In this document: positions 10,672 through 17,039 of the stretch, in pieces
Numbering within the stretch: position 1 is the stretch's first letter
Layout of the letters: every line of letters starts with the position of its first letter
Origin: a virus
Lineage: Duplodnaviria > Heunggongvirae > Uroviricota > Caudoviricetes
Length of the DNA: 28,980 nt
IMG/VR virus record: IMGVR_UViG_2574180275_000003
Direction: 5' to 3' (one strand)
Position numbers and translations under genes: made by a program
The notes under the pieces: generated by a model
What the model saw: only the letters and a program-made list of their open reading frames with translations
Told to the model about the DNA's origin: nothing
The model's database searches: none

Positions 10672-11841
10672 ATGAAGAAATTAATCGAACTCCGCCAGCA
10701 AAAAACCGCCCTGAAAAACCAGATGCGATCCCTGCTGGAAAAAGCCGACAGTGAAAACCGCAGCCTGAACGATGACGAGGGCAAACAGTTTGATGAACTG
10801 CGTGCAAAAGCCGATTCCCTCGACACAGAAATTTCCCGCCTCGAGTCTGTGGCTGATGAAGAACGCAGCAAGCCAGGAACGGGCATCCAGAAATTATCAT
10901 CTGATGAATTGCGTAACTATATCGTAACCGGAGATGTGCGATCACTGTCCACCAGCACTGACAGCGGCAGGGATGGCGGATATACCGTAATTCCTGAGCT
11001 TGATCGCGAAGTCATGCGCCAGCTACAGGATGACAGTGTTATGCGCGTGATCGCGACCGTGAAGACCGCAAAATCAAATGAGTTTCAGAAACTGGTTTCC
11101 ACTGGCGGCGCAACTGTAGGAAGAGGCACAGAAGGCAGCGCGCGCAGCGAAACCAACACCCCGAAAATTGAACGCGTAACCATCAAGCTGAATCCGATCT
11201 ACGCCTACCCGAAAACCACGCAGGAAATCCTGGATTTTTCAGAGGTGGATATTCTGGGCTGGTTATCCTCCGAAATTGCCGACACGTTCGCCAGCACCGA
11301 AGAGGATGATTTTGTTAATGGCGACGGTAACGGCAAGCCGAAAGGATTCATGGCTTACACCCGTGCGGCGACCAGTGACAAAACCCGCGCTTTTGGCACC
11401 ATTGAAAAAATGGTAGCGGCAAGTGGAACCGCCATTACAGCGGACGAACTGATCGACATTCTCTACAAGCTGAAAGCGAAATACCGCAAAAATGCCGTCT
11501 GGGTGATGAACTCGGGCACGGCAGGGACACTACAGAAGCTGAAAAATGAGAACGGCGATTATATCTGGCGCGACAGCCTTAAAGAAGGTGCGCCGGATAT
11601 GTTGCTTGGTCGTCCTGTTTACTGCCTGGAGTCCATGCCGGACATCGGCGCAGGAAAAGCACCGCTAGCGGTTGGCGATTTCAGTCGTGGTTATTTCATC
11701 GTTGATCATGTAACAGGGATTCGCACCCGACCGGACAACATTACTGAACCCGGATTCTACAAGGTCCACACGGATAAATATCTGGGCGGTGGTGTGGTGG
11801 ATTCAAACGCCATCAAAATTCTGGAAATGAAAGCTGGCTAG
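10672..11841 (+). CDS. major capsid protein, HK97-fold, with N-terminal coiled-coil delta domain
   Basis: 389 aa; paralogous to the prophage capsid protein at 20370-21575 (GDGNGKPKGFMAY / GDGTKKPKGFLAY; GDFSRGYFIVDH / GNFKRGYTIVDR; DSNAIKILEM / DSQAIKLLKI). Confidence 0.85.
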   Translation: MKKLIELRQQKTALKNQMRSLLEKADSENRSLNDDEGKQFDELRAKADSLDTEISRLESVADEERSKPGTGIQKLSSDELRNYIVTGDVRSLSTSTDSGRDGGYTVIPELDREVMRQLQDDSVMRVIATVKTAKSNEFQKLVSTGGATVGRGTEGSARSETNTPKIERVTIKLNPIYAYPKTTQEILDFSEVDILGWLSSEIADTFASTEEDDFVNGDGNGKPKGFMAYTRAATSDKTRAFGTIEKMVAASGTAITADELIDILYKLKAKYRKNAVWVMNSGTAGTLQKLKNENGDYIWRDSLKEGAPDMLLGRPVYCLESMPDIGAGKAPLAVGDFSRGYFIVDHVTGIRTRPDNITEPGFYKVHTDKYLGGGVVDSNAIKILEMKAG

Positions 11842-11853
11842 TCATGAGTAAGG

Positions 11854-11875
11854 AGGAGGCTGCGGCCTCCTTTTT
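11854..11875 (+). terminator. stable hairpin after the capsid gene (partial terminator / mRNA stabiliser)
   Basis: AGGAGGC-tgcg-GCCTCCT followed by TTTT, 13 bp after the capsid stop codon. Confidence 0.45.
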
Positions 11876-11895
11876 CAGCTTTATGGAGTACACCG

Positions 11896-14309: not shown

Positions 14310-14749
14310 TGCCATGGCAACCATTAAGGCGATGCACTGAGCCGGGCTGTAATAAGCGCGTGAAGTCCGGCAAGTGTGAAGAGCACAGGCGGGCTGCATG
14401 GCGTGCAGAGGATGCCAGACGGGGACACCGCCGCGCACGTGGGTATTCCCGACTGTGGGACAAATACCGCGCCATGTACCTGAAAAAAAATCCGTTATGC
14501 GTGCGTTGTCTGGCTAAGGGTATTTATACGCCAGCTCTTGTGGTGGATCACATCATTCCCATCAATGGCGGCGGTGATGTTCTCTTCTGGCCTGAGTGGA
14601 ACCACCAGGCATTGTGCCAGACGTGCCACAACCGTAAGACGACACGGGAAGATCCAGCCACGAAAGCGAACCGTAAGGCGGGCATGTATCGCGAGCAGGA
14701 AGAACGGGCGGCACATCGTAACGACTGGATGTATGGCGATGATGACTGA
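14309..14749 (+). CDS. HNH endonuclease, packaging-associated
   Basis: 146 aa with CxxC...DHIIPINGGG...LCQTCH, homologous to the prophage HNH at 166-516; TGATG-coupled to the connector gene. Confidence 0.85.
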   Translation: MPWQPLRRCTEPGCNKRVKSGKCEEHRRAAWRAEDARRGHRRARGYSRLWDKYRAMYLKKNPLCVRCLAKGIYTPALVVDHIIPINGGGDVLFWPEWNHQALCQTCHNRKTTREDPATKANRKAGMYREQEERAAHRNDWMYGDDD

Positions 14750-15037
14750 ACAGGAGCAAAACAGGCTGATACGTGGACTGATAAGGCAGCGTGACTTATG
14801 GAAGACACAGGAGACAGGGCACAAAGCCAACAGGACAGAGCGCACAGAACGCACCACAGCGAAGCGATTAACCGACCGTGACCGCGAGGTCATGGAATGT
14901 TTTCGCAATCGCTGGTGAGGCCGTCAGAGGGGGTGGGGGAGGTTTTCAGGACGAAACCGCCCCTGCCGGACACCGACCGCCTCCTCAAATTTTTGTGCAC
15001 GGGAATTTTTTTGAAAATAATTGGGCGAAAAAAGAAC
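14750..15037. promoter_or_regulatory. candidate cos / terminase recognition region of the satellite (HNH-terS spacer)
   Basis: Non-coding spacer with a G-rich block (gagggggtgggggagg), accgcccc / ccgcctcc and T7 runs, similar in layout to but distinct in sequence from the prophage spacer 517-664. Confidence 0.3.
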
Positions 15038-15394
15038 ATGGCAAGACCACCAAAAGCCCCCGCTTACCTGGATGAAATCGCGGTCAGGCAGTGGAAGGAA
15101 AAATCGCGCCAGCTTTCCGGACGGGAAGACCTTACCCCCGCCGACTGGAGCAATCTGGAGCTGTATTGCGTTAACTACTCCCTATACCGCAAAGCCGTCG
15201 AAGACCTTGCCACGCGCGGGTTCAGCATTGTTAACAGTCAGGGCAGCGAGAGCAGAAACCCCGCCCTGAGCGCAAAGGCTGACGCGGAAAGAATAATGAT
15301 CAAAATGGCTTCTTTGCTGGGTTTTGACCCGGTAAGTCGCCGCAGAAATCCACCGGAAACAGAGGAAGAGGACGAGCTTGACCGCCTGGCATGA
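15038..15394 (+). CDS. terminase small subunit (P27-like family)
   Basis: Start at internal ATG 15038 (MARPPKAPAYLDE...), matching the prophage TerS N-terminus MSGPPKTPP; acidic C-terminus; overlaps terL. Confidence 0.8.
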   Translation: MARPPKAPAYLDEIAVRQWKEKSRQLSGREDLTPADWSNLELYCVNYSLYRKAVEDLATRGFSIVNSQGSESRNPALSAKADAERIMIKMASLLGFDPVSRRRNPPETEEEDELDRLA

Positions 15395-17039
15395 GTACGC
15401 AGAAGGCGTAAAAAACGGCAAAATTACGGCCTGTAAACGACTGAAACAGGCCGTTAAACGGTATTTTTCTGACCTTGAAAACCCCCTTTACACGTTCGAT
15501 CCGGAGGTCGTGGAGCGGTTTATTGCCTTTTCCAGGGTGTGTCCGCACGTAAAAGGCGCAATGCGCGGTAGCCCCATTGAGCTGGAGCCGTGGCAGCAGT
15601 TCGCCTTTGCGTGCATCCTGGGCTTTAAGGTTAAGGCCACCGGACGGCGCAAATACACCAGCGCATTCATTGAAGTGCCGCGAAAAAATGCCAAATCCAC
15701 GGTCGCCGCTATCCTGGCTAACTGGTTTCTGGTTATGGAAAACGGGCAGCAGGATATTTACACCGCCGCCGTGAGTCGTGATCAGGCGCGGATCGTGTTT
15801 GATGATGCGCGTCAGATGTGCCTTTTATCCCGACCGTTGCGAAAGCGGGTAAATATTCAGGCACACAAGGTGATACACCCGAAAACCAACAGCCTGTTAA
15901 AGCCACTGGCAGCAAAAGCGGCAACCATTGAAGGTACAAACCCGAGTCTTGCCATTGTGGATGAATATCACCTGCACCCTGACAACGGGGTTTATTCCGC
16001 GCTTGAACTGGGAATGGGGGCGCGTCCGGAGGGGTTATTATTTGCCATCACCACATCGGGGAGCAACGTTGTTTCAGCCTGTAAACAACACTACGACTAT
16101 TGCTGCCAGATACTGGATGGTGAAGAGGTGAACGAATCCATGTTCGTGCTGATTTACGAGCTGGATGATGAAAGCGAGGTTGACGATCCGGCGATGTGGA
16201 TAAAGGCGAATCCCAATATCGATGTTTCCGTCGATCGTGAAAAACTGGCCTCAACCATCCAGAAAGCGCGGGGTATTCCGTCGCAGTGGGTGGAAATGCT
16301 CACCAAGCGATTCAATATCTGGTGTCAGGGGGCCACGCCGTGGATGGGTAACGGTGCATGGGCGGAGTGCGCCGGAACGTTCGCGGAGGCGGATTTATAC
16401 GGGCAGGAGTGCTACGCGGGGCTGGACTTATCATCAACCAGCGATATTTCCAGCGTGTGCTATGCCTTTCCGGTCGGTAAAAAGATTATGCTGGTTTCCC
16501 GTCACTATCTGCCGGAATTTCAGCTACAGAACCCCGCCAATAAAAACCGCGCCATCTATCGCCAGTGGGTAAAGGCGGGCTGGATACGCACAACACCGGG
16601 TGACTGCATTGATTATGACCGTATCCGTGATGACATCATGGCGGATGCAGAGAATTTCAATATCAGGCTGGTGGGTTTCGATACATGGAACGCCACGCAC
16701 CTGAGGACGCAGCTACAGGGCGCAGGATTTGAGGTGGAGCCGTTCCCGCAAACATACCTTCGTTTCAGTCCGGCGGCGAAATCGTTCGAAGTTTTTGTTA
16801 ACCGGAAGGTGATTGTGCATCGTGGTGATCCGGTGCTGGCCTGGTCAATGAGTAATGTTGTGATGCAGAGTGACGCGAACGCCAATATCAAGCCGAACAA
16901 GAAAAAATCATCCAACAAGATAGACCCGAGCGTTGCGGCGCTGATGGCGTTTGGCACATTCCAGGCAGAACATGAGGAATTTGCATTCGATATGAGCGAC
17001 AGCCACAAAGAGCGGCTTGCGACGTTTGATGGTGTGTAA
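15378..17039 (+). CDS. terminase large subunit (intact)
   Basis: 553 aa; apparent TTG start at 15378 with GAGGAAGAGGA upstream, overlapping the terS 3' end; aligns across its whole length with the two prophage terL fragments. Confidence 0.9.
   Translation: MTAWHEYAEGVKNGKITACKRLKQAVKRYFSDLENPLYTFDPEVVERFIAFSRVCPHVKGAMRGSPIELEPWQQFAFACILGFKVKATGRRKYTSAFIEVPRKNAKSTVAAILANWFLVMENGQQDIYTAAVSRDQARIVFDDARQMCLLSRPLRKRVNIQAHKVIHPKTNSLLKPLAAKAATIEGTNPSLAIVDEYHLHPDNGVYSALELGMGARPEGLLFAITTSGSNVVSACKQHYDYCCQILDGEEVNESMFVLIYELDDESEVDDPAMWIKANPNIDVSVDREKLASTIQKARGIPSQWVEMLTKRFNIWCQGATPWMGNGAWAECAGTFAEADLYGQECYAGLDLSSTSDISSVCYAFPVGKKIMLVSRHYLPEFQLQNPANKNRAIYRQWVKAGWIRTTPGDCIDYDRIRDDIMADAENFNIRLVGFDTWNATHLRTQLQGAGFEVEPFPQTYLRFSPAAKSFEVFVNRKVIVHRGDPVLAWSMSNVVMQSDANANIKPNKKKSSNKIDPSVAALMAFGTFQAEHEEFAFDMSDSHKERLATFDGV

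Follow-up and report, generated by a model that had tools for sequence, protein, structure and literature searches.

A probable capsid-forming phage satellite embedded in the large-terminase gene of a lambdoid prophage

Why would a prophage that encodes a head of its own hold, within one of its late genes, a second full set of head and packaging genes with no tail genes? This question is raised by a 28,980-nucleotide stretch of tailed-virus DNA (Caudoviricetes; IMG/VR record IMGVR_UViG_2574180275_000003), referred to here at its full length as the window, in which positions 2168-17562 form an inserted element of 15,395 bp, core to core, that sits in the large-terminase gene (terL) of a prophage. 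This resident is a lambdoid prophage with an HK97-type head and tail. The element is very probably a capsid-forming phage-inducible chromosomal island (cf-PICI) embedded in its helper, with a head-tail adaptor that fits a borrowed tail of the HK97 type. Published cf-PICIs are 10-18 kb long, have integrase, regulation and replication modules, and carry no lysis or tail genes (Alqurainy et al. bioRxiv 2022/Cell Host & Microbe 2023; He et al. 2025). Every sequence-level test supports assigning the element to this group. A cf-PICI lifestyle had been proposed in a first-pass annotation made from the sequence without database searches, and it is borne out by size, gene order, the integrase, AlpA and primase genes, the absence of tail and lysis genes, and a capsid resembling the structure 9GYI, all of which fit.

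Gene content and ends of the element

The first-pass annotation had called eight head and packaging genes at 10672-17039. Each lies where it was placed, is intact and matches the expected Pfam family, and the eight stand in the published cf-PICI order. They are given here with a small open reading frame (ORF) and a putative packaging site (cos) that lie among them.

10672-11841, + strand, major capsid protein with the HK97 fold (Pfam Phage_capsid, E 2e-71)
11896-12456, + strand, prohead serine protease (Pfam Peptidase_S78, E 9e-46)
12458-13681, + strand, portal (Pfam Phage_portal, E 6e-93); the ORF opens at 12368, and the likely start at 12458 was set from a 407-aa homologue annotated in strain 181.1
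13678-14016, + strand, head-closure protein, or "head-tail adaptor", of the HK97 gp7/SPP1 gp16 type (Pfam Phage_HCP, E 1.7e-18; NCBIfam gp16_SPP1)
14013-14309, + strand, gp6-type head-tail connector (Pfam Phage_connect_1, E 8e-12; NCBIfam TIGR01560)
14309-14749, + strand, HNH endonuclease, a packaging accessory (Pfam HNH, E 9e-10)
14733-14918, + strand, small conserved hypothetical ORF between HNH and the small terminase (PHROG 3173, E 1.3e-28; annotated in sister elements)
14927-14990, + strand, putative cos, a G-rich tract followed by GACCGCCTCC, from its likeness in architecture
15038-15394, + strand, small terminase (TerS) of the P27 family, with its real start at 15038 (Pfam Terminase_4, E 8e-23; NCBIfam sm_term_P27)
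15378-17039, + strand, large terminase (TerL), complete (Pfam TerL_ATPase, E 4e-26; TerL_nuclease, E 2e-52)

The left part of the element supplies the genes expected of the other cf-PICI modules, namely an integrase, two AlpA proteins, a Bro-N protein, a DUF927 primase-helicase and a single-strand DNA-binding protein (SSB), together with a PerC-family protein.

2346-3554, + strand, tyrosine integrase with an arm DNA-binding domain (Pfam Phage_integrase, E 1.4e-18; Arm-DNA-bind_3, E 1e-17)
3535-3768, + strand, first AlpA-family excisionase/regulator (Pfam Phage_AlpA, E 2.5e-9; PHROG 2790)
3802-4110, + strand, second AlpA-family excisionase/regulator (Pfam Phage_AlpA, E 7e-10; PHROG 2790, E 1.5e-34)
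4165-4746, + strand, Bro-N or anti-repressor-like protein, the "Bro zone" (Pfam Bro-N, E 7e-20; PHROG 2593, E 7e-86)
7047-9167, + strand, DUF927 primase-helicase of the replication module (Pfam DUF927, E 2e-46; the match to the SCC replicative helicase family is weak)
9378-9803, + strand, SSB (Pfam SSB, E 2.4e-16)
9807-10097, + strand, PerC-family transcriptional activator (Pfam PerC, E 2.9e-35)

To assess the absence of tail genes, the six frames of the element were searched by tblastn with 18 tail and lysis proteins, taken from HK97, the resident prophage and its relative in strain 181.1. The best E value was 0.15, and Pfam and PHROG scans of the element returned no tail or lysis family. With no CI/Cro-type immunity, tail or lysis module in 2168-17562, the element is not a complete siphovirus; since it encodes a portal and a full TerL, it is not a classical Gram-negative PICI of the EcCICFT073 type. 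Its 15,395 bp lie within the ~10-18 kb of cf-PICIs. Having neither tail nor lysis genes, the element would depend on a phage for both. The earlier statement that no tail genes lie within the attachment-site (att) boundaries holds, with the boundaries themselves, probably first taken to be a pair of 21-nt repeats, moved to two TTACCAA cores.

These cores were located by aligning attL and attR with an attB reference, the uninterrupted terL of E. coli SMS-3-5 (attB GGGTGAATTTTTTTACCAAACACATG; attL …AATTTTTTTACCAAgaaagtaac; attR cttgaAATATTCTTACCAAACACATG), and this three-way alignment places the crossover in TTACCAA. The predicted attP of the element contains …CTTGAAATATTCTTACCAAGAAAGTAAC….

1147-2174, + strand, 5' part of the resident terL, its first 343 codons (Pfam TerL_ATPase, and TerL_nuclease profile positions 2-61)
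2168-2174, + strand, attL crossover core TTACCAA, the left end of the element in the resident terL
2304-2326, + strand, doubled motif tgTGTATTGCactgTGTATTGCa on the P' arm, a putative integrase arm-binding site (repeat family D16)
17459-17481, + strand, doubled motif cgTGTATTGCgctgTGTATTGCt on the P arm (from the repeat search and the sequence itself)
17556-17562, + strand, attR crossover core TTACCAA, the right end of the element
17556-18292, + strand, 3' part of the resident terL (Pfam TerL_nuclease profile positions 58-283)

Helper-embedded PICIs (HE-PICIs) have been described as satellites with one integrase clade, inserted at 14 lambdoid late-gene sites and always co-oriented (Tommasini, Mageeney and Williams 2023; PMC10111431). 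Their attP has two doubled tgTGTATTGCantgTGTATTGCa motifs, 81 +/- 2 bp upstream and 132 +/- 2 bp downstream of the centre (PMC10111431). At this published spacing the element has two co-oriented doubled TGTATTGC motifs, that of the P arm ~78-80 bp upstream of the core and that of the P' arm ~131-133 bp downstream; with the centre set at 17561/2173, the distances are 80 and 131 bp. The 21-nt GTGTATTGC repeats (2305-2325 and 17460-17480) were rejected as att boundaries, because recombination there would leave ~200 nt of foreign sequence in terL. They are instead published integrase-arm-type motifs inside the element.

The two terminase pieces are one gene cut in two, because their TerL_nuclease profile positions adjoin (2-61 and 58-283); the insertion falls in the nuclease domain at profile positions 58-61. 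When the halves are rejoined, the resulting TerL has 585 aa and matches the intact SMS-3-5 protein at 100% identity. There is no attP replacement sequence: the reading frame of the 5' terL part continues into unrelated sequence and ends there at a stop, a stop codon also precedes the 3' fragment, and the target gene is disrupted until excision. In 5426 complete E. coli genomes, this terL was found in 935, where ~905 are intact and 36 have the same terL::int junction. As in HE-PICIs, the insertion is in a late gene and the key genes are all on the + strand like the prophage late operon, as are the substantial genes of the window altogether. tRNA genes as targets of integration were rejected, since the window has none.

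Head genes within a prophage could also be the remains of a second HK97-like prophage, inserted into the first or recombined with it and since stripped by decay of its tail, lysis and immunity genes. All eight late genes are ordinary HK97-family phage genes, and many helper prophages around such elements look truncated (PMC10111431). The early half of the element is, however, of PICI type, with an inward-facing P4-type integrase, two AlpA proteins, Bro-N, DUF927 primase, SSB and PerC, and the ends are precise, consisting of a 7-bp core with arm motifs. Additionally, no ORF of the element is broken, and all have counterparts in unrelated strains at 98.6-100% identity. At another chromosomal site, this packaging module is found with a different integrase (see below). 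The head genes stand in the reverse of the phage order, which is true of all cf-PICIs described so far, and with its 15.4 kb the element is as long as the genome of the characterised prototype. Decay of a second prophage is thus highly improbable.

Conservation of the head-closure protein

Each gene of the module had been described as a paralog of the flanking prophage gene. Each does have one diverged homologue there, but "paralog" is a loose term, as the gene pairs are old xenologues and not duplicates of resident genes. The global amino acid identities between element and resident are as follows.

Adaptor (head-closure protein), 62.4% (62-64%)
HNH, 44.6%
Capsid, 37.9%
Connector, 34.5%
TerL, 33.1%
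Portal, 32.8%
TerS, 26.5%
Protease, 25.7%

The first-pass annotation had estimated by eye ~60% for the adaptor and 35-40% for the capsid, and the alignments (62.4% and 37.9%) show these estimates to be accurate. It had also singled out the adaptor as the best conserved pair, which it is, with ranges of 62-64% for it and 19-45% for the seven others: 68 of its 109 columns are identical, compared with 607 of 1806 in the other pairs pooled (Fisher p = 3e-9), and the difference from the HNH pair alone gives p = 0.01. At third codon positions the adaptor pair is 35.8% identical, and the seven other pairs 31-38%. With synonymous sites equally scrambled, the similarity of the adaptor reflects constraint on an old divergence and not recent capture.

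The head genes of the element and of the phage are in the same orientation and in a different order, capsid-protease-portal and closure-connector in the element (10672-14309) versus portal-protease-capsid and connector-closure in the phage (18486-22478). The reversed order, as in published cf-PICIs, argues against simple block capture from the helper. That the element recently took its head module from the resident helper, in line with the late-gene-capture idea of the HE-PICI paper, was rejected here because of the 26-62% amino acid identity, the 31-38% third-codon identity (saturated synonymous sites) and the reversed gene order.

After terL, the resident genes run in the order portal, protease, capsid, gp6 connector, gp7 head-closure, gp10, terminator, tube, chaperones and tape measure. 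Compared with their annotated counterparts in the SMS-3-5 prophage, the tail genes show 97-100% identity, and the remaining resident late proteins in the window are likewise 97-100% identical to those of this empty-site prophage. The resident tail module is the presumed source of pirated parts.

22140-22478, + strand, resident head-closure protein, homologue of the element adaptor (Pfam Phage_HCP, E 6e-21)
22475-27993, + strand, resident tail module within the window: gp10, tail terminator, tube, chaperones and tape measure (ORFs; NCBIfam HK97_gp10)

To which side of the neck does the head-closure protein belong? Identities between the resident and other phages are given for each side.

HK97: head genes 22-38% (gp6 included), gp6 22%; head-closure protein 60%, gp10 79%, terminator 51%, tube 70%
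E. coli 042 and 361 prophages, head side: capsid 26%, portal 29-30%, gp6 47-48%
E. coli 042 and 361 prophages, tail side: head-closure protein 91%, gp10 99%, terminator 96%, tube 94%
Klebsiella phage ST101-KPC2phi6.3, head side: capsid 85%, portal 81%, gp6 45%
Klebsiella phage ST101-KPC2phi6.3, tail side: head-closure protein 67%, gp10 76%, terminator 52%, tube 64%

In these phage-phage comparisons the similarity of the head-closure protein goes with that of gp10, terminator and tube, and not with that of capsid and portal. For 042 and 361, the tail-side genes are shared while portal, capsid and gp6 are divergent, which places a recombination boundary between gp6 and gp7. The 042 and 361 helper prophages (24100-29550 of their loci) have a terL 5' part that is 99% identical to that of the window prophage.

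NCBIfam calls the head-closure protein SPP1 gp16-type and the product of the adjoining gene a head-tail connector. In the neck of SPP1 and HK97, the connector binds the portal and the closure protein is the surface where the tail docks. The capsid gene of the element is found at an identity of at least 95% in 108 E. coli genomes and the adaptor-connector cassette in only 17, in agreement with the observation that the adaptor and connector genes vary among packaging modules that are identical elsewhere (He et al. bioRxiv 2025). In that study, adaptor and connector swaps changed the tails used by cf-PICIs. Conservation of the adaptor for tail docking, as first proposed from the sequence, is supported by the pair identity, the third codon positions, the tail-side tracking and the identity of the protein as a closure protein. 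The adaptor would be kept at 62%, with the rest at 26-45%, because it must fit a borrowed HK97-type tail.

Within the adaptor gene, codons 29-62 (13762-13863 versus 22224-22325) have 59% third-position identity with the resident, and the sequence outside this patch 26%. These 34 codons give 35-44% in other element-phage and cross-phage adaptor pairs; the close pair of resident and 042 also gives 59%. At the DNA level, a 100-nt stretch of the adaptor is 76% identical between element and resident. The patch, noticed post hoc, may be an old gene-conversion tract.

The identity of the adaptor could be unrelated to tail docking if the protein simply evolves slowly or was recently copied from a resident-type phage. 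It is a small protein with 49 of 112 columns invariant across five diverse homologues, and the patch and the 100-nt stretch hint at the gene conversion just mentioned. Slow evolution is difficult to reconcile with the comparison of the resident and ST101-KPC2phi6.3, where the capsid is 85% identical and the adaptor just 67%. Similarly, the adaptor is the most divergent protein (35-50%) among cf-PICIs with near-identical packaging modules (He et al. 2025), and the counts of 108 and 17 genomes point the same way. As for copying, third-position identity over the whole gene is 36%, as in the other seven pairs, and the patch, chosen post hoc, makes up only a third of the gene. In either form, we consider this explanation quite unlikely.

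The element among known satellites

The prototype cf-PICI is EcCIEDL933 of E. coli O157:H7, whose capsid (PDB 9GYI) forms a 47.5-nm T=4 shell holding a 15.5-kb genome. The element capsid is 64.9% identical to it over the full length (E 1.7e-155), the genomes are of similar size (15.5 and 15.4 kb), and neither has tail or lysis genes. The two differ in location: the six cf-PICI attB sites of the published survey are chromosomal, with none stated to lie in a prophage, whereas the element is in a prophage terL. Additionally, a capsid identity of just 65% indicates a different sub-lineage. The EcCIEDL933 adaptor shares 35-40% identity with the adaptors of other cf-PICIs and works with HK106 but not HK022 tails; judged from published figures, the adaptor types of EcCIEDL933 and the element probably differ.

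The element also has close relatives among HE-PICIs. The supplement of PMC10111431 gives a site A_Terminase_1_246 with the identity block 'ttaccaa', which includes Eco4041.15 (CP016546.1/4486766-4502213), and this sequence is 97.8% identical to the window element over 90% of its length. Shared with this group (A:Terminase_1:246) are the terL target codon, the 'ttaccaa' block, the doubled tgTGTATTGCantgTGTATTGCa on both arms, co-orientation with the late operon and the four zones (integration, Bro, replication and late). From the 97.8% DNA identity to a catalogued member, the integrase would belong to the 11capE clade. The window element differs from the catalogued copies in the Bro/variable zone, with ~10% uncovered. 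The HE-PICI paper, in contrast to our assignment, describes the late genes simply as helper genes captured into a "late zone", and the elements are not classed there as capsid-forming.

Similar to the element, the induced HE-PICI 11capE/50icd is embedded in a lambdoid late gene, carries its own homologue of the disrupted gene and restores that gene on excision. 11capE lies in the capsid gene, is without terS and terL and is presumed to be packaged by helper cos machinery, whereas the element has a full head and terminase set and a putative cos that is not significantly similar to the resident's. Like the element, satellite P4 has an integrase of P4 type that includes an arm-binding domain, along with a large primase-helicase, a regulator resembling AlpA and two iteron clusters lying apart, which in the element are reminiscent of P4 ori and crr. 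Unlike the element, P4 encodes neither capsid nor portal nor terminase, and it remodels P2 capsids via Sid/Psu. Pfam and PHROG scans of the element gave no homologue of Sid, Psu or Delta, and a P4 CI-type RNA was not detected.

Five terL-embedded relatives were compared with the window element, those of APEC17, 181.1, 042, 361 and OkiPb01701. The adaptor gene is present in the window element, APEC17 and 181.1 and missing in 042, 361 and OkiPb01701. In the three without it, the portal gene overlaps directly with a connector gene whose product is only 59% identical to the window's (OkiPb01701 19428-19727, 042 19693-19992 and 361 19487-19786). These elements presumably use the helper's closure protein gp7, and such reliance fits a closure protein that is functionally tail-side. 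Since the adaptor is missing in some sisters, a "complete head module" is not universal in the lineage. Furthermore, E. coli O177:H21 has two cf-PICIs, one embedded in terL and one in chromosomal yifB (5757-19368 of that locus). The capsid, portal, adaptor and connector of the yifB element are 100% identical to those of the window, with a different integrase and different replication genes (RepA helicase). The same module behind a different integrase indicates that the packaging module moves between integration backbones.

According to the sequence, a P4-type tyrosine integrase inserted the element at the 7-bp TTACCAA in the prophage terL, co-oriented with the late operon. By analogy with published relatives, induction would lead the element to excise and to replicate from an iteron ori by its own DUF927 primase-helicase and SSB. 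Its own capsid, protease and portal would form small heads of T=4 size, and its own HNH, TerS and TerL would cut and package the 15.4-kb genome from its own cos. The filled head would then be closed by the element's gp6-type connector and gp7/gp16-type head-closure protein. In the HE-PICI model, the composite excises and replicates, after which the satellite excises, and the interrupted gene is silent until then (PMC10111431).

Several points weigh against this reading. Excision, small capsids, self-packaging and tail theft are attributed to the element by homology to the prototype, the location of cos is a guess, and the window spans only part of the prophage. The HE-PICI authors detected no virions from their own model composite (PMC10111431), and published cf-PICIs can exit the cell tail-less and then take tails from other phages. 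An adaptor of its own is not essential to the lineage, as three of the five terL-site sisters have no adaptor gene. Lastly, the element adaptor (62% to the resident) is no closer to the resident than to HK97 gp7 (58.9%, or 59%) or to Klebsiella phage homologues (63-69%). Similar to several phages, it marks compatibility with HK97-type tails and not with the resident prophage specifically, which is a plausible rather than a demonstrated tail donor.

The last of these points bears on a different role for the resident, in which the element is a genuine cf-PICI, the prophage is a mere landing pad, induction and tails come from other phages, and embedding is incidental or sabotages resident packaging. 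The adaptor is equally or more similar to non-resident phages, and EcCIEDL933 was not induced by any of 17 co-resident prophages (Alqurainy et al.). Tail-less capsids that acquire foreign tails are documented, and off-target chromosomal insertions by this integrase group exist (PMC10111431). However, the integrase clade targets 14 lambdoid late-gene sites and is always co-oriented, which argues for a selected cis relationship, and within the window the resident has an intact tail module, whose HK97 type agrees with the family of the adaptor. A resident that serves as a landing pad only is rather unlikely.

The element type and the embedded position were both published in 2023, the role of the adaptor was shown experimentally in 2025, and a near-identical element is catalogued. 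No new kind of element is described here; the locus joins work on cf-PICIs, in which tails only are stolen, with work on HE-PICIs, which lie within a helper late gene. On helper-embedded cf-PICIs we found just these two separate bodies of work. The literature found holds no statement that terL-embedded HE-PICIs are cf-PICIs, and no mention of a presence/absence polymorphism of the adaptor or of a gp6/gp7 module boundary. We tentatively suggest, as a possibility that falls short of probable, that the terL HE-PICIs and cf-PICIs are the same elements in this lineage, that they knock out the helper terL and bring their own incompatible head and terminase set, that the helper parts they need begin at the head-closure protein, and that the boundary of the stolen parts is still moving. 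The closure gene being present or absent among same-site sisters would reflect such a moving boundary. These elements, with and without their own head-closure gene in one E. coli prophage family, form a natural data set for what sets the tail choice of cf-PICIs, with resident phages that differ in head and share a tail and with a packaging module that is both prophage-embedded and chromosomal. The practical weight of tail choice is that cf-PICIs move DNA between species using different phages' tails.

Further features of the window

The remaining features comprise genes at the left edge of the window and genes, repeats and signals within the element.

166-516, + strand, prophage HNH gene at the left edge of the window
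665-1147, + strand, prophage small terminase, P27 family, at the left edge of the window
5369-5674, - strand, YlcI/YnfO family protein (NCBIfam NF041551, E 1.3e-16; PHROG 6522)
6736-7050, + strand, DUF4222 protein (Pfam, E 7.6e-18)
9191-9313, no strand, iteron cluster 1, a putative ori with 2 direct and 4 inverted copies of GCGGGTTA flanking an AT-rich spacer
10402-10428, + strand, strong terminator-like hairpin (consensus scan; putative function)
10495-10522, + strand, promoter-like site before the capsid operon (consensus scan; putative function)
17121-17272, no strand, iteron cluster 2, between TerL and attR, with 3 direct and 3 inverted copies of GCGGGTTA flanking an AT-rich spacer

The other element ORFs, alongside those for the integrase, AlpA, Bro-N, YlcI, DUF4222, DUF927, SSB and PerC, are small conserved hypotheticals. 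A variable zone at 4750-6530 is uncovered by the closest relatives and contains the YlcI/YnfO gene, its sole clear minus-strand gene, two terminator-like hairpins (minus-strand sites at 5062-5037 and 4939-4912 in a consensus scan) and small hypothetical ORFs. This zone gave no Rfam RNA match and no PADLOC defence match. P4-type immunity RNAs (C4 and isrK), known from some HE-PICIs, were sought and had no Rfam match at gathering thresholds; anti-phage defence cargo in the variable ORFs was likewise rejected for want of a PADLOC match.

The best solved-structure match of the resident capsid (20370-21575) is 6TB9, the capsid of the Rhodobacter gene-transfer agent (E 3.5e-75). The cf-PICI capsid 9GYI ranks lower (E 3.8e-54), and the HK97 capsid is not among the matches.

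The resident has a cos-like architecture too, a G-tract followed by ACCGCCGCC, upstream of its TerS (~540-585), as does HK97 at the end of its genome. In the element, the resident and HK97, ACCGCC(G/T)CC lies ~30-40 nt after the G-rich tract and upstream of the small terminase. The HK97 copy of the G-tract/ACCGCC arrangement abuts the genome end; the sequences differ, and the arrangement is possibly a common cos architecture. By this analogy 14927-14990 may, as a weak guess of low confidence, be the cos region, and hints at a separate packaging specificity. A cos common to element and prophage was rejected, as there is no significant DNA similarity and just a loosely similar G-tract/ACCGCC layout.

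Composition rows for 1-1000 and 15001-16000 look identical, from which a large duplication was suspected; the repeat search finds none, and the match is a coincidence. By pattern search, the octamer GCGGGTTA has 14 copies in the window, compared with 0.81 expected, and 12 of these are in the two iteron clusters of the element. PICI ori sites lie downstream of pri, and iteron cluster 1, just after the primase-helicase gene, is the likely ori. Cluster 2 is possibly a second replication site like the crr of P4. Lastly, the 22-nt sequence ATTCTGGCTGATGTTTACATAC at 10482-10503 overlaps the promoter-like site and has an 86% identical copy at 17172-17193, in the middle of iteron cluster 2; this repeat may be a shared regulator-binding site.

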